NCBI GenBank assembly: GCA_025963725.1
Contig: JAOQAE010000004.1
Span: 243,616-307,615 of the forward strand
DNA length: 64,000 nt
Source: Bacteroidota bacterium
GTDB taxonomy: Bacteria > Bacteroidota > Bacteroidia > 2-12-FULL-35-15
Direction: 5' to 3'
The notes under the pieces were generated by a model. The model did not search any database, was not told the origin of the DNA, and worked only from the letters and a program-made list of their open reading frames with translations. Shown in pieces: positions 28,697-51,056 of the stretch; the first letter of the stretch is position 1, and the number at the start of each line of letters is the position of its first letter. The translations under genes were made by a program, and so were the position numbers.

Positions 28697-28713
28697 CCCG
28701 ATGAGCCCGCATG

Positions 28714-29103
28714 CTAATTGTCCTTATCCTCTTTTTTCTTGAAAAATCCGGCCAGTTTCAGGGCGGCTGATTGGATGCCATCCTGGTTTTTTGCAACGAA
28801 GTGTGTTACGCTCATTTGCAGCAATGTGCCTAAAATATTCTTGATGGGATTTAATCCGCCTCCCGTAACGATCCTTTTCGAAATATAGCCTGCAGCAACG
28901 CTCAGGCCAGTGCCGAGAAGGTCGTCCTTGATCCCGGGTTCCCTCATTATGTTCTTTAAAGCGTTCTTCACCAGGTTAGCCGGCTTGAGGCTTTCATAGG
29001 TGCTGGCGAACTGTTCCTTGAGCAGCAGGCCTTCCTCTGCCTGTCTTATTTCGAGCAGGAGGATCGAGGCTTTCAGTTCCTGTGATGTTGTGATCTTTTG
29101 CAT
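28714..29103 (-). CDS. Hypothetical protein (129 aa), third member of the YtxH / holin-X cluster
   Basis: ORF with an ATG start, tightly packed (5 bp) with the holin-like gene. No motif recognised. Confidence 0.45.
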   Translation of the reverse strand: MQKITTSQELKASILLLEIRQAEEGLLLKEQFASTYESLKPANLVKNALKNIMREPGIKDDLLGTGLSVAAGYISKRIVTGGGLNPIKNILGTLLQMSVTHFVAKNQDGIQSAALKLAGFFKKKEDKDN

Positions 29104-29108
29104 GTGGC

Positions 29109-29450
29109 TTAGCTAAGCAGTTGTGAAATGATGGAATTACTGATGTAGTTCTTGATCCGCTTATGCATGAAGAAATATAAAATACCCCCGACAATGCCGT
29201 AAAAGGCCGATACACAAAAGAATCCGAGATATGTTTTTCCGAGCAGCTCTCCGAGCCACAGCGCTATTCCAATATTCGCAACCACGGTGAACATGGAAAG
29301 GAAAAGAATGGCGAGGCCCCGCGAGGCTAAGCTGGAGGTGAGGCTTGCTGTCCTGTCAACTGTTTTCAGCTTGAGGAGCTCGTAGCTCGTTCTTCCGTAT
29401 GCTTCAGCCCTTTCAACAAGGGGCTCGATAAATTTGATCGGATCTTCCAT
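29109..29450 (-). CDS. Phage holin family protein (Holin-X / holin superfamily III-like membrane protein)
   Basis: 113 aa with two TM helices (LAILFLSMFTVVANIGIALWL / FFCVSAFYGIVGGILYFFM); the pattern matches the putative Holin-X family, which is commonly paired with YtxH in Bacteroidota. Confidence 0.55.
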   Translation of the reverse strand: MEDPIKFIEPLVERAEAYGRTSYELLKLKTVDRTASLTSSLASRGLAILFLSMFTVVANIGIALWLGELLGKTYLGFFCVSAFYGIVGGILYFFMHKRIKNYISNSIISQLLS

Positions 29451-29486
29451 AAGTTTTATTTTTTTACCGGGGGTATTTATTATTTG

Positions 29487-29765
29487 TTAGCTGATCGCGT
29501 CTTTAACGTCTCTTTTGATTCCCTCTGCCTTTGCCTTACCTTGTTCGTAAAGGCCCGCAGCTTCTTCTTTGGCCGCTTCCAGCTTTTGTGACAGGCCGGC
29601 AAGCAGCTCATCAAATTTTTCTTTCAGCTCATCCGTTGTTTCGGAACCTTTTGTTACGATCTTTTTTCTTGTTTCCGAGCCTTTGTCGGGTGCGAATAAA
29701 ATTCCCAGCACTGCACCTACGGCAACGCCCGCCAATACGCCTAATACTACTTTTCCTGAATTCAT
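29487..29765 (-). CDS. YtxH domain-containing general stress protein
   Basis: N-terminal TM (VVLGVLAGVAVGAVLGILFAPDKGSETRKKI) followed by an Ala/Lys/Glu-rich coiled region, typical of YtxH. Confidence 0.7.
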   Translation of the reverse strand: MNSGKVVLGVLAGVAVGAVLGILFAPDKGSETRKKIVTKGSETTDELKEKFDELLAGLSQKLEAAKEEAAGLYEQGKAKAEGIKRDVKDAIS

Positions 29766-29797
29766 GTTGTTGGTTTTAGAATGATTAATAATGTGGA

Positions 29798-29950
29798 TTA
29801 AAGCCTGTTGCCGCTGATGACCCTGAACAGCACGGCGATTATCGCAATCACAAGAAGGATGTGAATAATGCCGCCTGCGCTGTAGCCGATAAAGCCAATG
29901 GCCCAGATGATAACAAGTATTACTGCGATGGTGTATAGTAGGTTTCCCAT
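29798..29950 (-). CDS. lmo0937-family small membrane protein (51 aa); not in the supplied ORF track
   Basis: Manual translation of the complement of 29798-29950: MGNLLYTIAVILVIIWAIGFIGYSAGGIIHILLVIAIIAVLFRVISGNRL*. This is the characteristic two-helix ~50-aa family. Confidence 0.65.
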   Translation of the reverse strand: MGNLLYTIAVILVIIWAIGFIGYSAGGIIHILLVIAIIAVLFRVISGNRL

Positions 29951-29976
29951 TGTTTGTTTGTTTGTTTGTTTGTTTT
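29951..29976. repeat. (TGTT)6 tetranucleotide repeat, i.e. (AACA)6 on the mRNA, abutting the start codon of the lmo0937-family gene
   Basis: tgtttgtttgtttgtttgtttgtt read directly; it begins at the base after the ATG complement. Confidence 0.9.
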
Positions 29977-30002
29977 GTGTTTATTTTATGAGTGATTGAT
30001 CT

Positions 30003-30572
30003 CTAAAAGTGCAGTGCAAGCCCGAACGTAGACACACCGGTTGAGAGGTCGAGGAATAATCCTGCCTTTTGAGTCATGTGATATTCGGCTCCAACATGCG
30101 CATCAAGATATAATGGGCTTGAAGTCTGGTAAACGTGCTTGTCGCCGTAATATTCGCTTTCCCACACTACATTCCTGTATACAAAGCCCACTGAGCCTGC
30201 TGCATAGAAATCCCATTTAGGCCCTGCACGAAACAGCTCATCAAAATAATAGGTTGCTTTTACTCCCACAGGCACTGCAATTACGCGGTACGAATAAGAG
30301 CGGTAATATGGATCGCCATGATTCGGGTTGTTCCAGTAGTAATAATTGCGGTAAGAATAGATGCCTACAAATGGCGCAAGTGTGAAATTCCTTACCACAT
30401 CAAATTCGTAGTTCAGCGTTCCAACAGGCAGTGTATGGCCAACGTAGCCATAGTAGCCGATGCCTGCACCAAGGTTAAGCGTGTTTCCGAATTTTTCCCT
30501 GTCGGGCTTGTCCTGGGCATTCATTGCAAATGATGTGATCAGTGCAATGGAAATCATAATGTACTTTTTCAT
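30003..30572 (-). CDS. Outer-membrane beta-barrel protein (small porin-like, 189 aa)
   Basis: Signal peptide MKKYIMISIALITSFAMNAQ, alternating amphipathic beta-strands rich in Y/G, and a C-terminal aromatic residue (F). Confidence 0.55.
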   Translation of the reverse strand: MKKYIMISIALITSFAMNAQDKPDREKFGNTLNLGAGIGYYGYVGHTLPVGTLNYEFDVVRNFTLAPFVGIYSYRNYYYWNNPNHGDPYYRSYSYRVIAVPVGVKATYYFDELFRAGPKWDFYAAGSVGFVYRNVVWESEYYGDKHVYQTSSPLYLDAHVGAEYHMTQKAGLFLDLSTGVSTFGLALHF

Positions 30573-30576
30573 AATC

Positions 30577-30617
30577 TTTAGTTTAGTTTAGTTTAGTTTA
30601 GTTGGTCTTTAGTTTAG
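30577..30617. repeat. (TTTAG)5+2 pentanucleotide repeat, i.e. (CTAAA)n on the mRNA, filling the spacer between two co-oriented OMP genes
   Basis: tttagtttagtttagtttagtttag ttggtc tttagtttag read directly. It spans from the stop codon of the upstream OMP gene to 4 nt before the ATG of the downstream one. Confidence 0.9.
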
Positions 30618-31270
30618 TTTCCTTGTTTGTAAAATTTATATCCCAGTGTGCCCTGGAACCAGGCATTTTTGTAGCGTGGTGTTGTGGATGACCCGTCGCC
30701 GTTGTTGTTCTGAACATCGCAGCCAACTCTTGCGCCTAACACGATATGCCTTAAGTTAATGTCGAGGCCGCCACCGAAACCGAATACATTCTTACGCACG
30801 TTGTCGTTCTGGAACTGCTGCTCCTGAACATAGCTGGTGGATGAATTGGAGAACACATCACGCTTGTTCAGCAGGTACGAGTACTGACCTCCGAGAGCAA
30901 GTGTGATGAACTCGCTTGGCTTCAGCTGGAACTCCAGGGGAACGTCGAGGTAGGTGGTGGTCCTTGTGAAAGTATACGTGCTTCCCAGCATCATCCCGGT
31001 GGCCCTGAAGCCTTTCTGGGAGATCTGTACTCCGGGGGCTATGCCCAAATACTTTCCGAAAGGAATTTCCATGAATGCACCGGCAGCCAGGCCGAACTTA
31101 GGGCTTGCTTTAAATTCTTCTCCTTTTTCATCGTACACATTGGAATAGTTCAGGCCGGCTTTGAGTCCGAACTGGAACTTTTCACGGTTGTCGGTATCGT
31201 GTGTGTCCTGTGCATTAACTGCGCCTGTATATGACAGGAATGCTGCTGCTATTATGATTAATTTTTTCAT
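30614..31270 (-). CDS. Porin-family outer-membrane beta-barrel protein (218 aa)
   Basis: Signal peptide MKKLIIIAAAFLSYTGAVNAQ, beta-strand periodicity, C-terminal ...GYKFYKQGN. Confidence 0.55.
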   Translation of the reverse strand: MKKLIIIAAAFLSYTGAVNAQDTHDTDNREKFQFGLKAGLNYSNVYDEKGEEFKASPKFGLAAGAFMEIPFGKYLGIAPGVQISQKGFRATGMMLGSTYTFTRTTTYLDVPLEFQLKPSEFITLALGGQYSYLLNKRDVFSNSSTSYVQEQQFQNDNVRKNVFGFGGGLDINLRHIVLGARVGCDVQNNNGDGSSTTPRYKNAWFQGTLGYKFYKQGN

Positions 31271-31300
31271 GGTCTTATGGGGTTTGTTTTTTTGTTTTTT

Positions 31301-31507
31301 TTAAACTGCTTTGTTATTATCTGTTCCGAGGATAACGGAGTGGATCTCTTCTTTTGTTTTGCCGAGCTTTACCTGCAGGCGGTCCATCATTTCATTTGTC
31401 TTGCTTTCTTCAGGTTGTATCTCATTATCTGTTAGCATGGAAAATTGCTGCTTCAGCTTCTCTTTAGTTGCGTTCCAGCTTTCTTTGGTTTCTTCGTGAT
31501 CGTTCAT
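31301..31507 (-). CDS. CsbD-family general stress protein (68 aa from the ATG at 31507; the track ORF begins at a TTG at 31540)
   Basis: MNDHEETKESWNATKEKLKQQFSMLTDNEI...MMDRLQVKLGKTKEEI matches the CsbD pattern (W..LKGK.KE.WG.LTDDDL). The track's upstream start codon is TTG. Confidence 0.6.
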   Translation of the reverse strand: MNDHEETKESWNATKEKLKQQFSMLTDNEIQPEESKTNEMMDRLQVKLGKTKEEIHSVILGTDNNKAV

Positions 31508-31537
31508 TTTGCTTGGTGTGTGGTTGTTTTTCTCTGA

Positions 31538-31605
31538 CAAAGGTGCGGTATGGGGAGCCGTTATGTGTTACAGAACTTTGAGGATATGTTACATGATTCA
31601 CACAT
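31538..31605 (-). promoter_or_regulatory. Composite promoter copy A (csbD): distal GTTACATGATTCACACA (31588-31604), proximal GTTACA (31567-31572), putative -7 box CACCTTTG (complement of 31538-31545)
   Basis: One of six occurrences with conserved spacing (half-sites 21 bp apart; proximal site to -7 box 21 nt). Confidence 0.6.
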
Positions 31606-31683
31606 AACGTAATTGGTTTTTTACTCTAAAAAAAAGCCTCCGTTACGAGTTCATCATAACGGAGGCCTTGTGTATAAAGCATT

Positions 31684-33288
31684 TTATTGTTGTGAGATCA
31701 GCTTTCCTGACTGGATAACTTTGTTCTCAGCAATAACCTTGTAAAAATAAACTCCTGAAGGCAGATTGCTTGTTGAAACTGTTGTAGTTTGCTCACTTAA
31801 CACTCTGTCCATAACAACATCACCAAGGACATTGAAAATCTGTAATTCAGAGATGCTTAATTTATCATCCATCTTAACAGTTAATGATGTTGAGAATGGA
31901 TTAGGATATACAGCTAATGCACTGTTAGCCTTAGGCTCATTTATCCCTGTTGGCGTACAGATAGTCTGAACAGTTACAGTCACAGCTTCAGTAGTCACTG
32001 TTCCTGTAGTAGACATGATTCGTCCGTTGATTACTACACCTGTTGAAACATCAACAGCTCCGTTGTTTGCGATGAATGTACCTGACAATACAGAATAATC
32101 ACTGATGTCAATTGCACCGTCTACTTTCCAGTAAACATTGTTTGCCTGCGCACCGTTGATCAATTTAACTTTAGCATACGTGCTTGTAGAAAGTGCACCA
32201 TTGATCTTGATAACAAAAATTGCATTTGTATTTCCTTGCGCATCAAGATACAATGTATCAGTAAATACACATGCTGCATTCATAAGGTATGTATGTGGTG
32301 TAAGAACCAGATCCGCACCGAATTGCGCAGGATATAATAATTCAATATCTGTCGGCAATGTATTCAGGTAATTATAAACATTCAAAAGGTCTGAAGCACA
32401 AGCAGCAGTTGAACCATCAGGGATAGGGTGAATGTTTCCTGTAACGTTAAGAGCAGTAAATCCAGTAGTTAAACCTACGTTTGTTCCGATATCACCGGTA
32501 GCGTAAGAAACACCAGCGTTTGTAACTGCACCGTCAGAAGAGAAGATTGCATAACACTCAGTTGAAGCCAGATCAGGAGCAGCAGGACCTGTTAATGTAG
32601 GGCTTCCGCATCCGATAGGTGTGTAAACAACAACACCATCAACTGTTACAGCACCTGCAGTGGTAAGCGCACGGCCTTCAAGTGTATCATTTGTATTCAT
32701 TTCGATCGCAGCATTATTTGCAATGATCGTTCCTTTCATTGTACAGGCAGCAGCGATACTTACAAGGCCTTCAGCCTTCCAGTACACATTACATGCCTTT
32801 GCATTATTGATCAGTTTGATCTTTGTATTTGCATTTGCAGATAAAGATCCCGCGATCTGGAAAATAAATACTGAATTAGGGTTTCCCTGTGCATTCAGAT
32901 ACAGGTTAAGATTCAATACAGTAGCACCCGACACAGCATAAACTCCCGGAGTAAGTGTATCACCGTTTCCTAATAATGGAGCAAGGAAAAAGGTAGGTAC
33001 TGCGCTGTTAAGCTGATTATATGCTATCAAAAGATCTGCAGAAGCCTGAGCACTTACAAGATCCTGATCATGCATCTGTCCGTTTACGTTTCCAAAACCT
33101 GTGCTTGATCCGCTGTTAGCTCCAACGTTTCCTGTTACGTGGGTAATGCCCGAGTTAACAATAGCTCCGCTGGTTGTGAAAAGCGCAAAATTTGCCGCTG
33201 TTCCTAAAGTAATTGACTGGCCGAAATTAATTGCGGGTATCAAAAGTAGCATTCCTGCTGATAATGTTTTAAGTAATTTAGTTCTCAT
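31684..33288 (-). CDS. DUF3494 (ice-binding-like) family protein with two tandem DUF3494 domains and a T9SS C-terminal sorting domain
   Basis: Signal peptide. LGTAANFALFTTSGAIVNSGITHVTGNVGANSG and a second LGADLVLT.../AIFSSDGAVTNAGVSYATGDIGTNVGLTTG block. C-terminal VYPNPFSTSLTVKM...GVYFYKVIAENKVIQSGKLI matches the T9SS CTD pattern. Confidence 0.7.
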   Translation of the reverse strand: MRTKLLKTLSAGMLLLIPAINFGQSITLGTAANFALFTTSGAIVNSGITHVTGNVGANSGSSTGFGNVNGQMHDQDLVSAQASADLLIAYNQLNSAVPTFFLAPLLGNGDTLTPGVYAVSGATVLNLNLYLNAQGNPNSVFIFQIAGSLSANANTKIKLINNAKACNVYWKAEGLVSIAAACTMKGTIIANNAAIEMNTNDTLEGRALTTAGAVTVDGVVVYTPIGCGSPTLTGPAAPDLASTECYAIFSSDGAVTNAGVSYATGDIGTNVGLTTGFTALNVTGNIHPIPDGSTAACASDLLNVYNYLNTLPTDIELLYPAQFGADLVLTPHTYLMNAACVFTDTLYLDAQGNTNAIFVIKINGALSTSTYAKVKLINGAQANNVYWKVDGAIDISDYSVLSGTFIANNGAVDVSTGVVINGRIMSTTGTVTTEAVTVTVQTICTPTGINEPKANSALAVYPNPFSTSLTVKMDDKLSISELQIFNVLGDVVMDRVLSEQTTTVSTSNLPSGVYFYKVIAENKVIQSGKLISQQ

Positions 33289-33320
33289 GTTTTTTATTTT
33301 TAAGTGAATTAATTTTCACG

Positions 33321-33391
33321 GTGCAAAGATGGGGCTCTTCGATAGCGGATGTGTTACACAACCTTGTGAATAAGTTACATGATTCACACAT
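33321..33391 (-). promoter_or_regulatory. Composite promoter copy B (DUF3494 gene 31684-33288): GTTACA 33353-33358; GTTACATGATTCACACA 33374-33390; -7 box CATCTTTG (complement of 33324-33331)
   Basis: Same architecture and spacing as copy A. The proximal site also shows the palindrome-like TGTGAAT-N10-ATTCACA. Confidence 0.6.
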
Positions 33392-33459
33392 GGGGCAGGA
33401 TTTACCCAAACAAAAAGTGCTGTCTTTTAAGGGACAGCACTCTTCAATATATGGTTGGC

Positions 33460-34215
33460 TTAGTTTACTGTGATGGCATTCCCTGCCATTACCACAGCGC
33501 CTGTGCGGGCCAGTGCCCTGCCGTTAAGCGTTGCGCCTGTATTAAAGGTGATCGATTGCATGGCAAGGATGGTTCCTTTAAAAACGGAAGTGGTCCCGAA
33601 TGTTGCAGATGTGCCTACCTGCCAGTAGATATTAGCTGCTGATGCACCGTTTGTAAGGAAAACCTTGCGTCCGGCAGTAGTAGTCAGCGTAGATGCGATC
33701 TGGATAATAAAGATCGAATTTGAATTTCCTTTTCCGTCAAAGGTTACGTCTCCTGAGGAAACCGCCAGTGATGATGTGGATTTATACAAGCCCGGGGTTA
33801 AGGTCATGCCGCCGATGTTTCCCGATAAGGTTACAATATCAGTGGCAGTTCTGCCGGCTGCATCATTGTATGCTGCTGTAAGGTCGAGCTTGGCCTGGGT
33901 GGCGATCGCATCATTGATATGCTGTGTTCCTACAAGGATCCCCGGAGGAAATCCACCTATCGATGTTCCGGGGCTTAATCCCATATCGCCCGTAATACGT
34001 GTTGCACCTGTATTGCTGATGGCGGAACCCGCAAGGATGGCAAGGGTTGAGTTTGCTCCCATTGCCACAGGGGCTTGTGAGGTCGTCTGCAGTGGCACTG
34101 TTTGTGCGCTTGCAGAAGGGTTCGACGGCTGCGGCTCATCCGTGTCTTTTTTACAGCCTACAATAAAGATGATCGATACAATTGCTAAAGCGGTTATTAT
34201 TTTTTTACGTTTCAT
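33460..34215 (-). CDS. DUF3494 (ice-binding-like) family lipoprotein, single domain
   Basis: Lipobox IVGC; LAILAGSAISNTGATRITGDMGLSPGTSIGGFP; ends in repetitive T/G/A-rich beta-solenoid-like sequence. Confidence 0.65.
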   Translation of the reverse strand: MKRKKIITALAIVSIIFIVGCKKDTDEPQPSNPSASAQTVPLQTTSQAPVAMGANSTLAILAGSAISNTGATRITGDMGLSPGTSIGGFPPGILVGTQHINDAIATQAKLDLTAAYNDAAGRTATDIVTLSGNIGGMTLTPGLYKSTSSLAVSSGDVTFDGKGNSNSIFIIQIASTLTTTAGRKVFLTNGASAANIYWQVGTSATFGTTSVFKGTILAMQSITFNTGATLNGRALARTGAVVMAGNAITVN

Positions 34216-34267
34216 TTTTTTGTTTTTAAGGTTACGCTACTGGCGAACAGGTGTGATAAATTTCACG

Positions 34268-34337
34268 TTGCAAAGTTGTTAAGATTCTCCTTAGCGGGTG
34301 TTACATAACTTTATCAATAAGTTACAAGATTCACATA
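34268..34337 (-). promoter_or_regulatory. Composite promoter copy C (DUF3494 lipoprotein): GTTACA 34299-34304; GTTACAAGATTCACATA 34321-34337; -7 box CAACTTTG (complement of 34271-34278)
   Basis: Same architecture; the spacer region TTTCACG.TGCAAAG is shared with copy B. Confidence 0.55.
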
Positions 34338-34361
34338 TCGGATCTGTGATGAAGCCCGGTG

Positions 34362-36377
34362 TTAGTTGATCTGCGTGATCTTCAGCTCTACTCTCCTGTT
34401 GAGCTGCCTGCCTTCGGGGTTATCCGTACCATTGGCTTTTTTATTGCCCGATACCGGCATCGATTTTCCATAACCTTTGGCCTGCATCCTGCCTGCATCA
34501 ATCCCGCTTACTGCAAGGCTGTTTACAACAGCCTGGGCGCGCTCTTCAGAAAGCTTTTGATTGTACTCCGCATCGCCTTTGCTGTCGGTATGGCCGGAGA
34601 TCTCCACCTTCAGGTTCGGGTTGCTTTTCAGGAGCATCACAAGATTCCTGAGCTCCACGTTGGAAAGTGTGCGTAAGGTCGACTTGTCGAAATCGAAGAA
34701 AATGTTGTTGAGGATGATCTTTGATCCGACTACGATAGGGATCAGCGATACTGACCTGTCGATCTCGTAATAGTTTGATTTCTTCGGGATCTCCATGTTT
34801 TCCGAATAGAACAGGTGGTTTTCGGCCTGGTAGGTGATGTTGTAATTTTTTCCCGGTGTAAGGATGAAGAGAAATTTCCCGGTTTTTTTGTTTGTATGAT
34901 ACACTCCGACCACATGGCCTGTTTCATTATCCGTTACCGTAATAATAACTTTACCCGCCGGCTTGCCCGATTCATTATTTACAACACCTTTCATCAGTGT
35001 AAGAGGGGTTATTTTCCGGTCGGGGAAGGTAGCCATGTAATTGTCCTTTTCGCCGAACCCGTCTGCGCGGAAAGAAGAGAAATAAGCTGTGCGGTTATCG
35101 GGGCTTACCACATAAAATATGTCGTCATACGTTGTATTAAGCGGGTAGCCTGCATTTACTGGCTCTGACCAGATCCCTTCTTCGGAAAGAAGGCTGGTGA
35201 AAATGTCGAATCCACCCATTGTGTTGTGGCCGTTTGAGCTGAACGACAGCGTAACGCCATCGGGGTGGATGAATGGTGCGTCTTCGTCATAAGGCGTATT
35301 GATGTTCGGCCCCATGTTCACTGCTTTTCCCCAGTCTCCCTCTGTTGTAAGGGTGCTCATATACAGATCGCTTCCGCCAAGCCCCTCGGGCCTGTCGCTT
35401 GTAAAATAAAGTGTGTTTCCATCGGCAGAGATGAATGCGCTCGGCTCCCAGTATTTGGTGTTGATGTTCTCATTCAGCTTTACAGGTGTGCTCCATACAT
35501 CGCCGTCGAGCGAGGTGCTGTAAATATTCCCGTCTCCCATGTCATCCTTATAAACGAGAATGGTCTGGCCGTCGGGGGAAATGCCTACAGTGGCCTCATG
35601 CCATTCCGTATTCACCGGCGTTCCAATATTTGTTGCCTTCGACCAGCCTGATTTTGTCCTGTTGGCGGTATAAATATCCTCCATGTTGTTGCCTTCTTCA
35701 TCCTTCTGAATGCCTGTAGTTTCCGGCCTGCGCGATGTAAAGAAGATGGTATTCTGATCGGCAGAAAGCACCGGGGAGTAATCGGCATTGCCCGAATTAA
35801 CAGCAGTGCCGAGGTTTTGGATCTTCATGCGCACCGGTGTGGCCATCAGGATCTGCCCGCTTTTACACATTTCGATCTTACGGTTGGTTTCGCTGATGGA
35901 TTTTTTGTCTGCTTTATTTTGCGACATCAGCGCTTTATAGCTTTCATAAGCGGTGATCGCTTTGTCAAATTCATAATTTAAATGGCATGCATCGCCTAAA
36001 AGCTTATAGGCAACAAGCGGTGCTTTTGTTTCCTTGTAGGAACCGCCGTTGTAATTATCCGTAGTGGAAGTAATGGCCTTGTTAAGATATGGGATCGATT
36101 TGGCGCGCTCGCTTTTAGAGCCAAGATAGCATACGCCTATCTTAAAGGCAAGGTTCATGTTTTCCGGGTTTTGCTTATACAGCTCAAGGAAAATGGGAAG
36201 CGCTGCCGAATAGCCTCCTTTGGAATGGATCAGCGATTCGTCCTTGCCGTCCTGGTAAACTTTCGAGAATGTTTCTTCGGCGTGGTTAAAGCTTCTCTCA
36301 AAGCTTTCCTGGCTGTTTTGTGCGCTAAGGCAGAAATTGAATAATAAGGTAAGTGTAAAGATGGTAAAGAATTTCAT
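34362..36377 (-). CDS. OmpA-family protein with an N-terminal TPR region, TolB-like beta-propeller repeats and a C-terminal OmpA/MotB peptidoglycan-binding domain
   Basis: Signal peptide; repeated ...Y.S..G...YF.S.R... WD40/TolB-like blades; C-terminal NIFFDFDKSTL...LKVEISGHTDSKGDAEYNQKLSEERAQAV (OmpA_C). Confidence 0.8.
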   Translation of the reverse strand: MKFFTIFTLTLLFNFCLSAQNSQESFERSFNHAEETFSKVYQDGKDESLIHSKGGYSAALPIFLELYKQNPENMNLAFKIGVCYLGSKSERAKSIPYLNKAITSTTDNYNGGSYKETKAPLVAYKLLGDACHLNYEFDKAITAYESYKALMSQNKADKKSISETNRKIEMCKSGQILMATPVRMKIQNLGTAVNSGNADYSPVLSADQNTIFFTSRRPETTGIQKDEEGNNMEDIYTANRTKSGWSKATNIGTPVNTEWHEATVGISPDGQTILVYKDDMGDGNIYSTSLDGDVWSTPVKLNENINTKYWEPSAFISADGNTLYFTSDRPEGLGGSDLYMSTLTTEGDWGKAVNMGPNINTPYDEDAPFIHPDGVTLSFSSNGHNTMGGFDIFTSLLSEEGIWSEPVNAGYPLNTTYDDIFYVVSPDNRTAYFSSFRADGFGEKDNYMATFPDRKITPLTLMKGVVNNESGKPAGKVIITVTDNETGHVVGVYHTNKKTGKFLFILTPGKNYNITYQAENHLFYSENMEIPKKSNYYEIDRSVSLIPIVVGSKIILNNIFFDFDKSTLRTLSNVELRNLVMLLKSNPNLKVEISGHTDSKGDAEYNQKLSEERAQAVVNSLAVSGIDAGRMQAKGYGKSMPVSGNKKANGTDNPEGRQLNRRVELKITQIN

Positions 36378-36421
36378 AGGTGTCTGACTGTTTGAATGTA
36401 CCGGAATGGCCCGGTTTAACA

Positions 36422-36491
36422 GCGCAAAGGTGAAGCTCTTTGACTCAGGAAAGCTTACATAACTTTATAAAGAAGTTACATGATTCACATA
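36422..36491 (-). promoter_or_regulatory. Composite promoter copy D (OmpA-family gene): CTTACA 36455-36460; GTTACATGATTCACATA 36475-36491; -7 box CACCTTTG (complement of 36425-36432)
   Basis: Same architecture (half-sites 20 bp apart; 22 nt to the -7 box). Confidence 0.55.
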
Positions 36492-36515
36492 TTACTTTTC
36501 GGGAGGCTTATGATT

Positions 36516-36911
36516 TTATCGTTTTTTGCTGTTCACAAGACTATCGGTGAACAGGATCAGGTCTTTCGTAAACAGGTCGAGCCTGGAAATGGATTGAGTC
36601 AGATAGCCGGATACCGTTCTCAGCTCTTCCTGTGAAAGCTCCTGCTCTTCCAGCATGCTCGATATTCCTAAAATATTTGTGATGGGTTGTCTTAGCTGGT
36701 GTGTGGTGAAGAACATGATCTGCTGAAGGCCACGGACGTAGTCCTGAAGATCTGCCTTTATTTCCACGAGCTCTGCAGAATCTGCGCAGGGCTCAGCCGG
36801 TCTGCTTTCGTGTGCAGGCGTATGTGGAAATCTTGTCTCCACCGGCTTAACAAGGGGGTGGGAAAATATAATAGCGGAGGGTTCCCTGAAAAATGGGCTT
36901 TTATTTATCAT
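36516..36911 (-). CDS. HisKA (dimerisation/phospho-acceptor) domain-only protein; no ATPase domain; true start probably internal
   Basis: FFTTHQLRQPITNILGISSMLEE matches the H-box (hEL+TPL..I.G....L). The ORF ends about 60 aa after it with no HATPase_c. The promoter copy E -7 box lies at ORF residues ~9-12, so the ATG at 36911 is unlikely and translation may begin at a downstream Met. Confidence 0.4.
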   Translation of the reverse strand: MINKSPFFREPSAIIFSHPLVKPVETRFPHTPAHESRPAEPCADSAELVEIKADLQDYVRGLQQIMFFTTHQLRQPITNILGISSMLEEQELSQEELRTVSGYLTQSISRLDLFTKDLILFTDSLVNSKKR

Positions 36912-36935
36912 CGCAAAGTGTTTAAATGTTCTGAG

Positions 36936-37002
36936 GCTAAATTACTGAACTGCCAACAGGCAGCAGTTACAAAATACCTTCAAAAACTTACATTATTCAC
37001 AC
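36936..37002 (-). promoter_or_regulatory. Composite promoter copy E (HisKA-only gene): GTTACA 36965-36970; CTTACATTATTCACACC 36986-37002; -7 box TAATTTAG (complement of 36938-36945)
   Basis: Variant half-sites with conserved 21-bp spacing; 19 nt to a TAnnTTTG-like box. Confidence 0.45.
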
Positions 37003-37020
37003 CTTGCGATTTGTTACCTC

Positions 37021-37458
37021 TTACATGCGCTCCATGTACCAGCTCAGCTCTTTTTCCATTTTCTGGTAATGGAGAATGGTTGTAATGATCTTCTGCAGGC
37101 GCATAAAAGCGGTTTCGCTCTTCACAATATAATCGAAGGCCTTGTGGTGCATACAGTTGATGGCAACATCGATCTTATCCTGGGAAGACAGCATCACCAC
37201 CGGAATAGATGGGTTTAATGCCTTGATCTTGTCAAGCGTTTCCATTCCGTTCATTGCATTTTTATCGATGCCGTCGAGATGGTAATCGAGAATAATAACA
37301 TCGGGCTTGTCTTCCGGCAGGTGCTGCATGCAAAGCTCGCCCGTTGCAAATGTTTTCACGATAAAGTTATCCTGCTGCATAAATTCGATCTCCATCATTC
37401 TTAAGAATATGGCATCATCATCAACCAGGAAAATTTTTATTTTGTTTTCAGTGTTCAT
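37021..37458 (-). CDS. Stand-alone CheY-like response regulator receiver protein
   Basis: KIFLVDDDAIFLRMMEIEF...DVIILDYHLDG...VVMLSS...K: a receiver fold with no output domain (145 aa). Confidence 0.8.
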   Translation of the reverse strand: MNTENKIKIFLVDDDAIFLRMMEIEFMQQDNFIVKTFATGELCMQHLPEDKPDVIILDYHLDGIDKNAMNGMETLDKIKALNPSIPVVMLSSQDKIDVAINCMHHKAFDYIVKSETAFMRLQKIITTILHYQKMEKELSWYMERM

Positions 37459-37463
37459 CTTAA

Positions 37464-39809
37464 TTACTTTTTGATCAGATTAATTTCCATTTCGAGCTCT
37501 GTGTATACTTGTGTGCAAACCTCTTCCAGCTCGGAAACGAGGGCGCCTATTTTTTCTGTGTTTTGCTTTGTGCCGGCATATTCCTGGATCTGCCTGGCTT
37601 TGTTCTCAAAATGTCCGCTTATGCCCATGATCGAGAATGAGGGGATCATTTTATGAACAGCTGCCTGCAGTGTCGGCCAGTCTTCAGTTACAAGGCACTG
37701 CTTCATTTCACTGATCAGGGACGGTGTTTGCTCCAGGTAAAGCGAGATCATTTCATTGATCAAGCTTTGGTTATTCCGTGTATGCTTTTTTATATAGTCG
37801 AGGTTCGTGTATTTTTCCTGTGCCGGCAGCTCTGCCCTTTCTTTATGTCCGGTTTCCCTGCCATCACCTTTTTTCAGGTATTTGATGATCTTGCTGTACA
37901 GGAGCTTGTCGTCGATCGGCTTGGAGATATAGTCATTCATTCCTACGGCCTTGCATTTTTCAACGTCAACCGTGGTCACATCTGCCGTAAGCGCGATGAT
38001 GGGCACTTGAGAGTCCATGTTGCGGCGGATATACTCAGTGGCCTCGAAGCCGTTCATTTCGGGCATCTGGAGGTCCATCAGGATAATGTCATACGAGGTC
38101 GTCTTCATTTTTTCAATAGCGATCTTTCCATTGCCGGCGATCTCCATTTCGAAGCCGAATTCTTCAAGCAGCGTTTTCATGAGCAGCTGATTCAGCGCAA
38201 TGTCTTCCACCACAAGGATCTTCACATTCTTTATTCCTGTTTCCAGCTCTATTCCCATATCAGCTTCTGTTTCCACGCTGGCGTTTGTTTTCAGGAAGCT
38301 CAGGCAAAATGCGAAAGTAGAGCCCTGGCCCAGCTTGCTTTTTACGGTGATGCTTCCGCCCTGGGACTCCACAAGCTGCTTCACAATGGCAAGCCCGAGC
38401 CCCGTGCCTCCGTACAACCTGGAAGTGCCGCTGGTAGCCTGCTGGAAATCATCAAAGATGTTTCCGAGCTTGTTTTCCGGGATGCCGATACCTGTGTCTG
38501 TAATGGCGAATTCGATGGTAACGACCTCCGAAGTTTCTTCGAGAAGGCGCACGCAAACAGTGATCTTTCCTTCGGAAGTGAATTTTACCGCGTTGCCCAC
38601 CAGGTTCAGTATGATCTGGTGAAGACGCACAGGATCGCCCAGTAAAATTTCAGGGATCGCCGGATCATACTCTTTGATCAGCTCCAGGTTCTTTTCATGG
38701 ATCTTGGTTTCAAATAAATGGAGCATGGCGGAAATGGAGGAGGAGAGCTTGAAAGGGACATGTGCAAATGTCATTTTTCCTGCGTCCACCTTTGCAAGGT
38801 CAAGTATATCATTGATCAGTACGATGAGTGCATCGCCCGATATTTTTATCGCATTTAAATATTCCTGCTGCTTTTTGCTCAGCTCTGTTTTCAGCACCAC
38901 TTTTGTAAAGCCGATGATCGCATTCATCGGCGTCCTGATCTCATGGCTCATGTTCGAAAGGAACTGCTGCTTCGATTTTACGGCAGCTTCTGCAATTTGC
39001 GTTGCGCTTTCAGCCTTGCTTTTTGCCTGCTCTGCAATTTCGGTTGCAAGCTCTGCAAATACTTTGGCTTCGGTAAGCTCAGTAGCAATGCGTTTCTGCT
39101 CGGTAACATCCCGTGCAACGATCACTACGCCGAGTACATTTCCCCTGTCGTCCTTATAAACAGAACCGTTGAAGCGCACATCCGTAAGCTTTCCATTCTT
39201 GTGGCGAAGCGTAAGCGGGGAATCGGCAACGGAGCCTTTTGCAAACACTTCCTCGTATACTTCGCGTGCTTTCTGGGGCTCGGTAAAATAGTCGAAGAAG
39301 TCGGTGCCTTTCAGGTTCTCGCGTGTAATGCCAGTAATATTGACAGTTGCCTGGTTCATATCTGTGATCTTTCCTTCGGTGCTGATGGTAACCAAAGGAT
39401 CGAGGCTGGCTTCGATGAGGCTGAGTGAATAATTGAAAAGAAGCTTTTGCGCAGTTACATCCCTCGCTACGATCACTACACCAAGCGCATTGCCTGCATC
39501 ATCCCTGTAAACTGAGCCATTGAATAATACATCGGTAAGCTTGCCGTTCCTGTGGCGCAGTGTTAGCGGGGAATCCGTCACTGAGCCGTTTGCAAAAACC
39601 TCGCGGTATACTTCACGTGCTTTTTGCGGGTCGGTGAAATAATCGAAGAAATCGGTTCCCGTGAGCTTTTCGCGGGTAATGCCGGTTATATTCGCCAGCG
39701 CCTCATTCATGTCGGTGATCTTGCCTTCGATGCTGATGGTGATCAGCGGGTCGAGGCTGGCTTCGATCAGCCTTCTTGCGTAATGTGATTCTTGTCTTCT
39801 TGTTTCCAT
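37464..39809 (-). CDS. Hybrid sensor histidine kinase: PAS-PAS-HisKA-HATPase_c-REC-HPt
   Basis: Two near-identical PAS modules; H-box SHEIRTPMNAIIGF; G-boxes DTGIGIPENKLGNIFDDFQQ...GGTGLGLAIVKQLV; receiver KILVVEDIALNQLL...LMDLQMPEMNGFE; C-terminal HPt-like HKMIPSFSIMGI. Confidence 0.85.
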   Translation of the reverse strand: METRRQESHYARRLIEASLDPLITISIEGKITDMNEALANITGITREKLTGTDFFDYFTDPQKAREVYREVFANGSVTDSPLTLRHRNGKLTDVLFNGSVYRDDAGNALGVVIVARDVTAQKLLFNYSLSLIEASLDPLVTISTEGKITDMNQATVNITGITRENLKGTDFFDYFTEPQKAREVYEEVFAKGSVADSPLTLRHKNGKLTDVRFNGSVYKDDRGNVLGVVIVARDVTEQKRIATELTEAKVFAELATEIAEQAKSKAESATQIAEAAVKSKQQFLSNMSHEIRTPMNAIIGFTKVVLKTELSKKQQEYLNAIKISGDALIVLINDILDLAKVDAGKMTFAHVPFKLSSSISAMLHLFETKIHEKNLELIKEYDPAIPEILLGDPVRLHQIILNLVGNAVKFTSEGKITVCVRLLEETSEVVTIEFAITDTGIGIPENKLGNIFDDFQQATSGTSRLYGGTGLGLAIVKQLVESQGGSITVKSKLGQGSTFAFCLSFLKTNASVETEADMGIELETGIKNVKILVVEDIALNQLLMKTLLEEFGFEMEIAGNGKIAIEKMKTTSYDIILMDLQMPEMNGFEATEYIRRNMDSQVPIIALTADVTTVDVEKCKAVGMNDYISKPIDDKLLYSKIIKYLKKGDGRETGHKERAELPAQEKYTNLDYIKKHTRNNQSLINEMISLYLEQTPSLISEMKQCLVTEDWPTLQAAVHKMIPSFSIMGISGHFENKARQIQEYAGTKQNTEKIGALVSELEEVCTQVYTELEMEINLIKK
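39102..39770. repeat. Recent tandem duplication (~350 bp x2, roughly 80% nt identity) encoding the two PAS domains of the hybrid kinase
   Basis: Protein residues 14-130 and 131-~236 align nearly residue-for-residue (LIEASLDPLITISIEGKITDMNEALANITGITREKLTGTDFFDYFTDPQKAREVY... vs LIEASLDPLVTISTEGKITDMNQATVNITGITRENLKGTDFFDYFTEPQKAREVY...). The DNA blocks ggtgatcagcgggtcgaggctggcttcgat / ggtaaccaaaggatcgaggctggcttcgat also align. Confidence 0.85.
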
Positions 39810-39817
39810 GTGTATGC

Positions 39818-40393
39818 TTAGCTATTTGGGTTCCCGATCTCTTCGATGGGGACGCGCCGCTGCGTCTTTAGCTTTTTGAAGTGTGAAGGGGAGAGGCCGG
39901 TCATTTTTTTGAACTGGTTGGATAAGTGGGCTACGCTGCTGTAGTTCATTTTCCAGGCAATTTCGGTAATGTTCAGTTCATCGTAAATGATGAGCTCCTT
40001 GATGCGCTCTATTTTATGGGAGATAATGAATTGCTCGATGGTGGTACCCTGCACCTCTGAAAAGAGGTTGGCGAGATACGTATAATCGTGGTTCATCTTT
40101 TCACTCAGGAAGTCGGAGAAATTCACTTTGATCATTTCATCCGTATGATGCACCATTTCGATGATCACATTTTTTATTTTTTCGATAAGCATGGATCTTT
40201 TGTCGTCCATAAGCTCCAGCCCGGAAGAAAGCAAAGATGCTTTCAGCTCTGCCCGCTGGGCAATGGAGATGTTTTCCATGATCTCCACTTCCCCAAGGTC
40301 GACCACAATGAAGTGCAGGCCAAGTTTCTTCAGGTCTTCCTTCACCGCTAATTTACAGCGGTTGCTTACCATGTATTTTATGTATAATTTCAA
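39818..40393 (-). CDS. Small AraC/XylS-family transcriptional regulator #1 (about 190 aa; C-terminal HTH_18); the start at 40393 is TTG, alternative ATG at 40372
   Basis: C-terminal ITEIAWKMNYSSVAHLSNQFKKMTGLSPSHFKK (AraC HTH signature region). The N-terminus KLYIKYMVSNRCK is conserved with paralog #2, where it follows an ATG. Confidence 0.7.
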   Translation of the reverse strand: MKLYIKYMVSNRCKLAVKEDLKKLGLHFIVVDLGEVEIMENISIAQRAELKASLLSSGLELMDDKRSMLIEKIKNVIIEMVHHTDEMIKVNFSDFLSEKMNHDYTYLANLFSEVQGTTIEQFIISHKIERIKELIIYDELNITEIAWKMNYSSVAHLSNQFKKMTGLSPSHFKKLKTQRRVPIEEIGNPNS

Positions 40394-40416
40394 ATTTACG
40401 CTCCGTGCTTTGTTTC

Positions 40417-40485
40417 CTCAAAGGTGAGGGGATCTGTGACGCAAAGTGTTATACAATTTTTGGGAAAAGTTATATAAATCACACA
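40417..40485 (-). promoter_or_regulatory. Composite promoter copy F (AraC #1): GTTATA 40447-40452; GTTATATAAATCACACA 40469-40485; -7 box CACCTTTG (complement of 40419-40426)
   Basis: Divergent half-site sequence (GTTATA) but identical geometry (22 bp between half-sites; 20 nt to the -7 box). Confidence 0.45.
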
Positions 40486-40501
40486 TTTTTGGCCGGCGGG
40501 C

Positions 40502-41062
40502 TTATATGTTTTCGAGGTTGCCCTTGCGCTTTTGTTTCAGTTGCTTGTAGAAGGAAGGGGAGAGCCCGGTCACTTTTTTGAACTGCTTGGATAAGTGCGC
40601 CACGCTGCTGTAGTGCAGCTTGTAGGAGATCTCGGTAAGGTTCAGCTCATCATACAGGAGCAGCTCTTTCACGCGTTCGATCTTATGAATGATGATGAAC
40701 TGCTGGATGGTGATACCCTTTACCTCGGAAAAAATGTTGGACAGGTAGGTATAGTCGTAATTCAACTTTTCGGCGATGTGATTGGAATAATTGATCTTGG
40801 GCAGCTCATCCGAATAATGGATCATTTCGGTGATCACATTCTTGATCTTCTCGATCAGGATGCTTTTTTTGTCATCCAGCAGCTCAAGGCCCGATTTCAG
40901 CAGATTGGCTTTCAGCAGGTCGCGCTGTTCCTTTGTAAGATCCTCCAGCACATCCACCAGTCCGAGGTCAACCATCACATACCTTAAGCCCAGCTTTTTC
41001 AGTTCTGTTTTTACGATCATTTTGCAGCGGAGGCTGACCATGTATTTAATGTAGAGCTTCAT
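40502..41062 (-). CDS. Small AraC/XylS-family transcriptional regulator #2 (paralog of #1)
   Basis: MKLYIKYMVSLRCKMIVK... C-terminal LTEISYKLHYSSVAHLSKQFKKVTGLSPSFYKQ; about 60% identical to #1. ATG at 41062 chosen over the longer ORF to 41131. Confidence 0.7.
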   Translation of the reverse strand: MKLYIKYMVSLRCKMIVKTELKKLGLRYVMVDLGLVDVLEDLTKEQRDLLKANLLKSGLELLDDKKSILIEKIKNVITEMIHYSDELPKINYSNHIAEKLNYDYTYLSNIFSEVKGITIQQFIIIHKIERVKELLLYDELNLTEISYKLHYSSVAHLSKQFKKVTGLSPSFYKQLKQKRKGNLENI

Positions 41063-41211
41063 TAAGAGTAATTGATAGTTGATCTGCCTGGCGAAAAAAG
41101 AGAGCTGAAAAGCCCTCTCGCCGTGTATCAAATATACGTATAAATGCTGAAATCAACTGTTATTTTGCTCCAGCAGGGTCAGGTTTCAAATGCCGGTTCC
41201 CGGCTTTTGGG

Positions 41212-42282
41212 TTAGTGTTTTCTTTTCGCCCGCTCATATTGCAGCGGCCATTGAGGATCTGTGCCCAGCTCGGTGGCAGCCCTTCTCGGGAAATAGGGGT
41301 CGCGCAGGAATTCACGGGCGAGGAATACGAGGTCGGCCCTGCCTTCTTCAATAATTTCGTTTGCTTCTTTGGAGGTGGTGATCAGCCCTACGGCGCCCGT
41401 CATGATCCCGCCGGCTTTCCTGATGTTCTCCGCAAAGCTTACCTGGTACAGCGGCTTTACAGGGATCTTTACATCCGGCGCATTTCCGCCTGTGGAGCAG
41501 TCGATCAGGTCGATCGTTTTTGTTTTCAGAAGTGTTGCCAGCTTTATTGAATCATCTTCATTCCATCCGCCTTCTTTCCAGTCGGTGGCGGAGATCCTTA
41601 CAAACATCGGAAATTCTTCCGGCCAAACGGTTCTTACGCTTTCAATGACCTCCAGCAAAAAACGGCATCGGTTGTTGAAAGAGCCGCCGTATTCGTCGCT
41701 GCGCCTATTGCTCAATGGCGAAAGAAATTCGTTGAGGAGGTATCCGTGTGCGGCATGCAGCTCAATTACTTTGAACCCGGCTTTTTTCGCCCTTCCGGCA
41801 GCATCCCGGAAATCGCTGATCACTTTCTTTATTTCCTGGATGCTTAATTCCTTTGGCACAGCGTCGCCTTCCTTAAATGCAAGGGCGCTTGGGGCGCAGG
41901 TTTGCCAGCCGCCCGCTTCTTTCGGTAATTCTTTGCTGCCTTCCCATGGCGGCAGCTGGCTCGATTTCCTTCCTGCATGTGCGATCTGGATGCCGGGTAC
42001 GGAGCCTTGCTTTTCTATAAATGAAGTAATGCGCCGTAAAAACGGGATGTGCTCGTCCTTCCAGATGCCAAGGTCTCCCGGCGAGATCCTGCCTTCCGGT
42101 GAAACGGCAGTGGCTTCCGTGAATATAAGCCCGGCACCGCCAACAGCCCTGCTGCCGAGATGAACAAGGTGCCAGTCGCCGGCGAAGCCATCCTCGCTCG
42201 AGTACTGGCACATGGGCGATACAACAATGCGGTTCTTCAGCTGTATGTTTTTAATGGTAAGAGGAGAGAATAATGTGGGCAT
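41212..42282 (-). CDS. NADH:flavin oxidoreductase / Old Yellow Enzyme family (NamA-like)
   Basis: LFSPLTIKNIQLKNRIVVSPMCQYSS...HAAHGYLLNEFLSPLSNRRSDEYGGS...GNAPDVKIPV; TIM-barrel OYE signature residues. Start MPTLF (42282) chosen. Confidence 0.8.
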   Translation of the reverse strand: MPTLFSPLTIKNIQLKNRIVVSPMCQYSSEDGFAGDWHLVHLGSRAVGGAGLIFTEATAVSPEGRISPGDLGIWKDEHIPFLRRITSFIEKQGSVPGIQIAHAGRKSSQLPPWEGSKELPKEAGGWQTCAPSALAFKEGDAVPKELSIQEIKKVISDFRDAAGRAKKAGFKVIELHAAHGYLLNEFLSPLSNRRSDEYGGSFNNRCRFLLEVIESVRTVWPEEFPMFVRISATDWKEGGWNEDDSIKLATLLKTKTIDLIDCSTGGNAPDVKIPVKPLYQVSFAENIRKAGGIMTGAVGLITTSKEANEIIEEGRADLVFLAREFLRDPYFPRRAATELGTDPQWPLQYERAKRKH

Positions 42283-44647: not shown

Positions 44648-44656
44648 TTAGGATAC

Positions 44657-44683
44657 GGCCTCTTCTTCGGAAGAGGCCTTTGC
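44657..44683 (+). terminator. Hairpin terminator GGCCTCTTC-TTCG-GAAGAGGCC + TTTGC
   Basis: Perfect 9-bp stem 10 bp after the stop codon; short T-run. Confidence 0.6.
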
Positions 44684-45016
44684 TTATCAGCTACGAATGA
44701 CTATATAAATAGTATTAAATCAATATCACATACTACCTTATTTATAGTTTATCAAAAATATTTCATGTCAAAAGACACTTTTCATTGGTTTGTAATAAAG
44801 CCAGTGGAAATTAATGTGTTACACTTCTGGCTTTGATTTAGCGTGAAATAGCTGCTCTTCAAAACAGGTATTTTTACCTATTGCTTTTCTTTAAAAGAAT
44901 CCTTCCCTTTACAATATTCAGGTTTAATAAAGCGTTTTTTTGTTCCGTCCGAATTAATATTAAAATTCCTGGTATCTAAATCACGGAAGCCCGTTATATC
45001 ATTTAAATAAATAATT

Positions 45017-47107: not shown

Positions 47108-47119
47108 ATATATTTTTTT

Positions 47120-51050: not shown

Positions 51051-51056
51051 TAGCTT

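Follow-up and report, generated by a model that had tools for sequence, protein, structure and literature searches.

Activators of the AraC/XylS family that work from direct repeats include AraC at the I1-I2 sites of araBAD, XylS at Pm and ToxT at its toxboxes, all of which combine an AraC domain with two helix-turn-helix (HTH) motifs and an N-terminal domain. In Bacteroidota gene regulation is poorly mapped beyond polysaccharide use and a few extracytoplasmic function (ECF) sigma factors. Here we describe a promoter motif and two small AraC-family proteins, AraC1 and AraC2, from a Bacteroidota metagenome-assembled genome (MAG; assembly GCA_025963725.1). The analysed stretch of 64,000 nucleotides (nt) from contig JAOQAE010000004.1 is called the window in the following; it contains six minus-strand intergenic copies of the motif. 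As in the AraC/XylS systems, a direct repeat with a period of 21 bp is found, its proximal copy occupies the place of the upstream core promoter element, and the regulator gene is putatively autoregulated. The differences are considerable: the N-terminal domain has an HMA-like ferredoxin fold of about 62 residues instead of a cupin/jelly-roll sugar or effector domain, the promoters are probably of the Bacteroidota sigma-A type (-7 element TAnnTTTG), there are two paralogues and an operon with a hybrid kinase and a receiver protein, and motif and protein are both almost invariant across orders.

Several other systems resemble the locus in part. MarA, SoxS and Rob of Enterobacteria are likewise AraC-family activators of a dispersed stress regulon, with asymmetric boxes of about 20 bp and some promoters of class II, and the modelled DNA-binding domain of AraC1 superposes on all three. 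MarA and SoxS, however, are monomers that lack an extra domain, occupy one box only and are regulated through their own synthesis; the locus described here combines two repeats with an additional N-terminal domain and a linked putative phosphorelay. With regard to target content the closest counterparts are the regulons of sigma-B in Bacillus, to which CsbD and YtxH belong, and of sigma-S in E. coli, to which OsmY-like BON, YciE/F-like DUF892 and ferritin-like proteins belong. The PhyR-NepR-EcfG system of Alphaproteobacteria is comparable in having histidine kinases and single-domain receivers upstream and a regulator operon within its own regulon. In contrast to sigma-B, sigma-S and EcfG, no alternative sigma factor seems to be involved here; a -7 box of housekeeping type is kept, with an apparent dependence on a transcription activator. 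LytTR sites, known for AgrA, ComE and AlgR, share the direct repeats and the 21-bp period, and they too precede autoregulated operons in which a kinase is encoded, but no LytTR protein is encoded near the sites described here, the receiver lacks a DNA-binding domain and the repeats are not related in sequence. In a limited literature search, which is no proof of absence, we found neither a general stress regulator described for Bacteroidota nor any description of the motif, the regulon or this AraC subfamily; csbD is mentioned in PMC11109978 only within the unrelated yjbJ motif.

The six sites of the window align without gaps over about 70 nt, from a distal element through a CAnCTTTG box. Counted from T1, the T of TGTGAAT, the consensus reads AATG (-3 to 0), TGTGAATnATGTAAC (1-15), N10, ARTTRTGTAAC (26-36), N21 and nAnCTTTG (58-65). 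The distal 17-mer TGTGTGAATCATGTAAC with up to three mismatches matches six times in the window, always on the minus strand, versus a mean of 0.11 matches in shuffled sequence; none of 100 shuffles reached six. The six shared upstream sites, which had been proposed in a preliminary description of this DNA, are therefore real. A position weight matrix (PWM) built from the six sites gives them 61-83 bits, and no other position of the window exceeds -3.3. With a PWM made only from sites of other genomes they reach 38.7-51.8 bits, and the next best position -1.7. Neither PWM revealed a seventh copy in the 64 kb, including a weaker site 5' of the ytxH, araC2 or PP2C phosphatase gene. Apart from the motif, flanks and downstream genes of the six sites are unrelated.

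In its details the preliminary description needs some correction. The 15 nt between the distal element and the proximal TGTAAC are indeed constant in all six sites, but the half-sites, given there as 20-22 bp apart, are exactly 21 bp apart in each of them, and the distance from the proximal hexamer to the box, given as 19-22 nt, is exactly 21 nt throughout. GTTATA (TATAAC) at the araC1 promoter had been regarded as a divergent copy; A replaces G in 20-26% of the sites elsewhere, so it is a common variant. The gene assignments agree with Pfam, although the CsbD match of the window protein stays below the cut-off; the corresponding proteins behind motif copies of other genomes are clear CsbD members with 58 bits against a Pfam cut-off of 40.

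The degenerate pattern TGTGAWTNWTRTAAS-N12-TTNTRTAAS, which fits all six sites, was run on one genome per species (185,579 species, 596 Gb), where about four chance matches are expected by an arithmetic with equal base frequencies. At least 120 loci with at least 142 sites were found. All counts out of 120 loci given here refer to the matches listed. Bacteroidota lineages are named for 116 of these 120 loci; the remaining ones are given as one "FCB group" MAG, one "Ignavibacteriae" MAG and four with uninformative titles. The orders represented are Bacteroidales (Paludibacter, Prolixibacteraceae, Lentimicrobiaceae, Carboxylicivirga), Flavobacteriales (Flavobacterium, Lutibacter, Aequorivita, Yeosuana), Chitinophagales (Ferruginibacter, Puia), Cytophagales (Emticicia, Arcicella) and Saprospirales, with Lewinellaceae also among the carriers. 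Cultured carriers are Flavobacterium gawalongense, F. sandaracinum, F. xinjiangense, F. urumqiense, Carboxylicivirga and Labilibaculum. The contig binned as Ignavibacteriae (L060, PLYO01000047.1) carries a complete motif together with a -7 box; either it is misbinned or the system reaches beyond Bacteroidota.

In the 141 sites with enough flanking sequence several positions are conserved although they were free in the pattern, namely A at -3/-2, A9, T16, T19, A26, A37 and the box at 58-65. The repeat unit ARTnRTGTAAC occupies positions 5-15 and 26-36, which makes the core of the motif a pair of 11-bp direct repeats with a 21-bp period. The distal repeat has an additional AATGTGTG extension, and the two-part site covers 36 bp. 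Only chance-level matches were obtained with Rfam over positions 28000-42000 at E values up to 1 (mir-465 and BSnc120, whose 27.7 bits compare with a gathering score of 114), and judged by this comparison the motif is not a described RNA family.

For the promoter geometry 168 sites from metagenome loci were examined. The PWM used to collect further sites ends at position 38, so the -7 box provides an independent test. An A..TTT box stands at the same register in 128 of the 168 sites (76%) and one nt closer in another 24, the background being 0.4% per position; the composite promoter of the preliminary description is thus recovered in sites that were found without using the box. In 141 sites the second position of the box is A in 122, the TTT is present in 114-140 and the final G in 87. 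Start codons follow 80-130 nt past T1 in 272 of 396 sites with a downstream open reading frame (ORF), with a peak at 100-110 nt.

The sigma-A box TAnnTTTG of Flavobacterium psychrophilum spans -12 to -5 (PMC9723704). If the -7 box of the motif is placed in the same way, transcription would start at position 70, and the proximal and distal repeats would lie at about -39 to -34 and -65 to -55. A conserved TTG was not found 17-23 nt upstream of the box in the 141 sites, where positions 36-38 read CAC. The -33 TTG of the Bacteroidota sigma-A promoter, expected about 19 nt 5' of the box, is absent and the proximal repeat occupies its place, as had been suggested earlier. Between repeat and box, positions 41-57 carry at most 0.31 bit each and no CGT. 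Relative to the predicted start, the proximal repeat ends 21 nt before the box and the putative activator site reaches up to or into the upstream core element, which corresponds to a class II arrangement. A scan for E. coli-type sigma-70 promoters gave no enrichment (22 found, 19.7 expected), as anticipated for this phylum.

Taken as promoters, the six sites are best explained as activator-dependent sigma-A promoters of the Bacteroidota type with the small AraC proteins as putative activators, a reading to which we assign a probability of roughly 0.65. Most likely two AraC protomers in head-to-tail orientation would occupy one face of the DNA and recruit the sigma-A RNA polymerase, the bound protein sitting at the usual place of the -33 element in class II fashion. 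Because no conserved -33 TTG is present the promoters look too weak to work unaided, and the fixed register of the repeats 5' of the -7 box in hundreds of sites is as expected if contact to the polymerase matters.

The AraC proteins are connected to the motif by several comparisons. By tblastn, small AraC genes were found in 26 of the 120 motif loci of up to 8 kb. When the 1807 ORFs of these loci were clustered without bias, the hybrid kinase was present in 27 loci, the small AraC in 23, an OmpA-type protein in 22, and CsbD and REC-only proteins in 20 each; the top clusters of these loci contain no further DNA-binding family. In the reverse direction, 80 metagenome loci were picked by similarity to AraC1 alone (78-86% identity), 77 of which have at least 150 nt upstream of the gene. 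A site lies within 250 nt upstream on the same strand in 52 of the 77, usually some 90 nt before the start, which is also the distance seen in the window. The sites recovered in this way score 14.8-52.6 bits, with 53 of the 57 sites located up to 250 nt upstream on the same strand above 20, while the shuffled maximum is 11.1. The density is 1.09 sites per kb in the kilobase 5' of araC1 and zero inside the araC1-hybrid kinase-REC operon.

A different arrangement is found for the second paralogue group, which includes AraC2 of the window and is 62-70% identical to AraC1. These genes never have the motif upstream; it follows the gene instead. The AraC2-like genes of loci L007, L033, L045, L053, L089 and L106 end with GAA AAT GTG TGA (L-E-N-V-stop), so that the stop codon lies inside the motif, and in L028 and L105 the motif still begins in the last AraC2 codons, though in another reading frame. 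In the window araC2 ends with LENI-TAA and the AATG that opens the araC1 promoter site follows 16 nt past the stop. The order araC2, site, araC1, kinase, REC occurs again in L106. AraC1 itself is 80-88% identical across Flavobacterium, Labilibaculum, Paludibacter, Prolixibacteraceae and the MAG studied here (P0063, P0072, P0013 and P0093 included), a near-invariance across orders that parallels the near-invariant DNA site. Such a degree of identity between orders is unusually high for a transcription factor.

The link to the AraC proteins made in the preliminary description thus receives comparative support from the ORF clustering, the 52 AraC1 loci and the stop-codon fusion with AraC2, all of which are associations. 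From these we infer that the small AraC-family proteins beside the cluster bind the site, and that AraC1 is autoregulated and heads a conserved operon with the hybrid kinase and REC genes.

Both proteins belong to the AraC/XylS family, as their C-terminal 100 residues or so contain two HTH motifs and Pfam HTH_18 matches both (61 and 63 bits, cut-off 33.6). Among the NCBIfam models only generic AraC models match AraC1 and AraC2, and these remain below threshold. On direct reading the DNA-binding domains of the two are closely alignable (DYTYLANLFSEVQG versus DYTYLSNIFSEVKG and YSSVAHLSNQFKK versus YSSVAHLSKQFKK). An AlphaFold2 model of AraC1, calculated with a 50-sequence alignment (predicted local distance difference test score 86.8), consists of a beta-alpha-beta-beta-alpha-beta domain (residues 1-62; E2-6, H11-23, E28-32, E35-38, H44-56, E60-61), a linker helix and the two-HTH DNA-binding domain with seven helices in residues 92-179. 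Foldseek relates the modelled DNA-binding domain to AraT, AdpA, MarA, SoxS, Rob and AraC at E values of 6e-6 to 9e-3. For the N-terminal domain Atx1, GolB and TTHA1718 were returned with template modelling scores of 0.64-0.71 on the target and probabilities of 0.96-0.99, the E values being only 0.16-0.4. Pfam HMA gave no match on this domain, and the metal motif M-x-C-x-x-C of HMA proteins is not kept; the invariant residues M8, S10, R12 and C13 form M-x-S-x-R-C with a single cysteine. C13 could serve as a redox or ligand sensor.

A survey of the genes downstream of 425 sites, supported by Pfam, revealed a recurring set. It includes CsbD, YtxH, a triple-BON protein, DUF892 (YciE/F-like), ferritin and MlaE, coiled-coil and glycine-zipper OmpA proteins, outer membrane protein (OMP) beta-barrels, REC-only proteins and the small AraC gene, as well as DUF6600, DUF6629, DUF4382, an M48 peptidase, an alpha/beta hydrolase and a B12-binding radical SAM protein with DUF4070. 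Small proteins without family also recur, for instance a 61-residue membrane peptide and a 111-residue lipoprotein. DUF3494 proteins occur in 15 of the 120 motif loci. Sites lie about 90-125 nt upstream of a gene in at least 120 loci, and the same targets recur across orders. The radical SAM gene is placed directly 3' of an AraC2-like gene and the motif in L007 (1370-2860), L028 and L057; such an enzyme is unexpected for a stress regulon.

By family name the target set appears to overlap the sigma-B and sigma-S regulons, and a shared promoter signature stands before many unlinked genes for proteins whose families are stress-protective. The motif therefore probably marks an undescribed general stress regulon that is dispersed and phylum-wide. 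The preliminary description had spoken of a compact, locally regulated cold regulon. On both counts the comparison points elsewhere: an AraC gene accompanies only 26 of the 120 loci, and DUF3494 is one target class among many in a recurring content of general-stress type. The output would be a general-stress-like regulon that includes DUF3494 ice-binding-like proteins in some lineages, the present one among them.

Not all of the evidence favours activation by the AraC proteins, and some of it leaves room for other regulators. In 94 of the 120 loci there is no AraC gene within 8 kb, which is expected for a dispersed regulon and lends no support, and a site immediately 5' of the gene is missing from 25 of the 77 AraC1 loci, many of which carry one about 0.9-1.1 kb upstream, before an intervening gene. 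Membership in the regulon and adjacency to sites do not prove that AraC1 or AraC2 is the binder. The match of the box to TAnnTTTG is partial, with T at the first base in 48 and C in 55 of 141 sites. The stress label is taken from protein family names, the step from the phosphorelay to AraC from conserved operon structure, and Pfam Hpt scores the kinase C-terminus at 19.5 bits, below the cut-off. These points count against our reading. A different, unlinked regulator of LytTR or CRP/FNR type might bind the motif, with the araC1-kinase-REC operon as one target among others, and such regulators need not adjoin their sites. LytTR sites are direct repeats with a 21-bp period, as are positions 5-15 and 26-36 of the motif, and the CRP half-site TGTGA opens the distal element. 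We nevertheless consider this unlikely, since neither LytTR nor CRP nor any other DNA-binding family is found in the enriched ORF clusters of the 120 loci or in the cluster of the window, and each of two separate AraC paralogue groups has a fixed arrangement of its own relative to the motif. For a CRP-type protein, moreover, the proximal repeat lacks TGTGA and no TCACA partner is present at N6.

It is also conceivable that the AraC proteins bind the site as repressors or mutual anti-activators, the repeat over the -33 region blocking the polymerase. The overlap of the site with the core promoter would suit this, some AraC-family members are known to repress, and two paralogues with similar DNA-binding domains (65% identity overall) could compete. 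AraC/XylS proteins whose site adjoins the -35 element are mostly activators, however, and the missing -33 TTG as well as the fixed register of the repeats upstream of the -7 box in hundreds of sites speak against repression, which we hold to be quite improbable. Still less speaks for promoters of an alternative sigma factor in which GTAAC would be a -35 element of the ECF type. ECF -35 elements contain AAC, which TGTAAC resembles, and alternative sigma factors run general stress regulons elsewhere; yet there is no CGT-type -10 element 16-17 nt past either TGTAAC, and since the positions from repeat to box are nearly information-free an ECF-type -10 is excluded. The conserved downstream element is a sigma-A type box at 21 nt, and no sigma or anti-sigma gene is enriched near the sites in the 120 loci. 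Segmental duplication or leftovers of a mobile repeat without regulatory role, suggested by six sites within 9 kb and by the two DUF3494 paralogues downstream, can practically be dismissed: apart from the motif the flanks and downstream genes are unrelated, and dozens of unrelated gene families in many orders follow the motif with constant orientation and start-codon distance. The preliminary description had named a motif carried along within a duplicated segment as the finding that would overturn it, but unrelated genes follow the motif in at least 120 genome loci.

If the AraC proteins are the activators, their operon suggests how they could be controlled. The hybrid kinase shows no hydrophobic segment at its N-terminus on direct reading, and in its C-terminal region it can be aligned to the Hpt portion of the NCBIfam models for ArcB, BarA and TorS. 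Phosphate would pass from a cytoplasmic PAS-PAS hybrid kinase to its own REC domain, a probable Hpt domain and the stand-alone REC protein. As the latter has no output domain, it would control AraC activity by protein contact, possibly via the HMA-like domain; positive feedback would follow from the site in front of the operon itself. Such a relay, with the REC-only protein as its last member and as modulator of AraC, is speculative, and we would put it somewhat below even odds. For the complete scheme we see the chances as evenly balanced. In it the motif would be the promoter signature of a general stress response in environmental Bacteroidota, with a nearly invariant HMA-like AraC pair at sigma-A promoters, control by a PAS hybrid kinase and a single-domain receiver, positive feedback, and a 5'-terminal hairpin on some transcripts.

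This hairpin, GTGAA-N6-TTCAC, is present in about 10% of the motif promoters, where it begins precisely at the predicted +1, for example in L017, L023, L043, L055, L078 and L085. Perfect copies number 27 at the +1 register and 0-13 at every other combination of start and loop tested; the two largest of these other values (13 and 7) come from the same hairpin read with a shift of 1 nt. Among sequences selected only on GTG at the 5' side, 93% of the cells pair, compared to 22-55% for slid partners. There are 14 double changes, a number reached in none of 500 shuffles, and several G-U pairs; compensatory variants are GTGAT..ATCAC, GTGGA..TCCAC and ATGAA..TTCAT. Pairing, double changes and G-U pairs favour an RNA hairpin of the sense strand over a protein operator. 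We regard it as a probable 5'-terminal mRNA hairpin with an effect on stability or translation, and a palindromic operator as the less likely reading. A second leader hairpin, CGCCAGnnGCG, follows the first one and an ACCTG-like stretch in seven leaders, that of IBP2 in the window and those of L014, L051, L066, L077, L091 and L094. The genes 3' of it differ (DUF3494 lipoprotein, CsbD, a His-rich protein and others), and it has no match in Rfam.

With a 36-bp site and a regulator that are nearly unchanged across several orders, a single PWM is enough to read off the regulon in any genome. If our interpretation is correct, it would explain the co-regulation of DUF3494 ice-binding-like genes, CsbD, YtxH and many small uncharacterised proteins in soil, freshwater and cold habitats, and it would offer a tight inducible promoter for Bacteroidota genetics. 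A master stress regulon of environmental Bacteroidota would be of high biological interest.

The features of the window are collected in Table 1. Given the predicted +1 of promoter 1, a longer CsbD-like ORF with TTG start (31540) falls upstream of the predicted transcript. The OMP_b-brl_2 gene and the unclassified ORF behind the csbD-like gene may be co-transcribed with it, and the terminator-like hairpin, as judged from its structure, splits IBP1 and csbD into two transcription units. Homologues of the HisKA-only protein are found in just 3 of the 120 motif loci, so this protein is lineage-specific.

Table 1. Promoters, leader elements and genes of the motif cluster in the window (IBP, DUF3494 ice-binding-like protein; T9SS, type IX secretion system; T1 and boxes as defined in the text; scores with the PWM from other genomes)
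Feature	Position	Strand	T1	-7-like box	Predicted +1	Score (bits)	Remarks
Unclassified ORF	30003-30572	-					3' of csbD-like gene, no own motif
OMP_b-brl_2 gene	30614-31270	-					3' of csbD-like gene, no own motif
CsbD-like protein, 69 aa	31301..31510	-					Candidate target, motif upstream; Pfam CsbD E 0.007, below cut-off
Composite promoter 1	31538..31606	-	31602	31538-31545	~31533	46.4	5' of CsbD-like gene (ATG at 31510)
Intrinsic-terminator-like hairpin	31633..31669	-					16 pairs, then T run; between IBP1 and csbD promoter
IBP1, 534 aa	31684..33288	-					Candidate target, motif upstream; double DUF3494 protein with T9SS sorting domain (Pfam)
GTGAAAATTAATTCAC hairpin	33304..33319	-					At predicted +1 of IBP1 transcript; conserved 5'-terminal class
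Composite promoter 2	33324..33392	-	33388	33324-33331	~33319	51.8	5' of IBP1
IBP2, 251 aa	33460..34215	-					Candidate target, motif upstream; DUF3494 ice-binding-like lipoprotein (Pfam)
IBP2 leader	34235..34266	-					GTGA-N6-TCAC hairpin at predicted +1 (34253-34266, shorter form), ACCTG, CGCCAGTAGCG hairpin (CGCCAGnnGCG, 34235-34245)
Composite promoter 3	34271..34339	-	34335	34271-34278	~34266	47.0	5' of 251-aa DUF3494 lipoprotein (IBP2)
TPR-PD40-OmpA envelope protein	34362..36377	-					Candidate target, motif upstream (Pfam)
Composite promoter 4	36425..36493	-	36489	36425-36432	~36420	42.7	5' of TPR-PD40-OmpA gene
HisKA-only protein, 131 aa	36516..36911	-					Candidate target, motif upstream
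Composite promoter 5	36937..37005	-	37001	36937-36944	~36932	38.7	5' of HisKA-only gene; weakest -7 box of the six (TAATTTAG)
Stand-alone receiver (REC-only), 145 aa	37021..37458	-					Last gene of conserved araC1-kinase-REC unit
Hybrid histidine kinase	37464..39809	-					PAS-PAS-HisKA-HATPase-REC and probable Hpt; begins 9 nt past araC1 end
araC1, 191 aa	39818..40393	-					TTG start 40393, own motif upstream; proposed activator
Composite promoter 6	40419..40487	-	40483	40419-40426	~40414	45.0	5' of araC1; AATG-TGTGATTTATATAAC-N10-AATTGTATAAC-N21-CACCTTTG
araC2	40502..41065	-					Small AraC-family paralogue, 65% identical to AraC1; no motif upstream

Some further genes surround the cluster. 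YtxH, a Phage_holin_3_6-like membrane protein and a 129-residue protein form a triad at 28714-29765 (-), which we take to resemble the sigma-S-dependent yqjD-yqjE-yqjK group of E. coli. The window ytxH gene has no own motif and is preceded by a gap of 237 nt; elsewhere YtxH has the motif upstream at nine other sites. On the opposite strand, at the edge of the stress cluster (26594-28696, +), a TPR-membrane-SpoIIE (PP2C) phosphatase with RsbU-like architecture is encoded, which is not enriched in the motif loci of other genomes. The stretch 44000-52000 of the window has a G+C content of 0.36-0.41 compared to 0.43-0.54 elsewhere and contains large ORFs without Pfam match, for example 45017-47107 (696 residues); it may be an acquired island.

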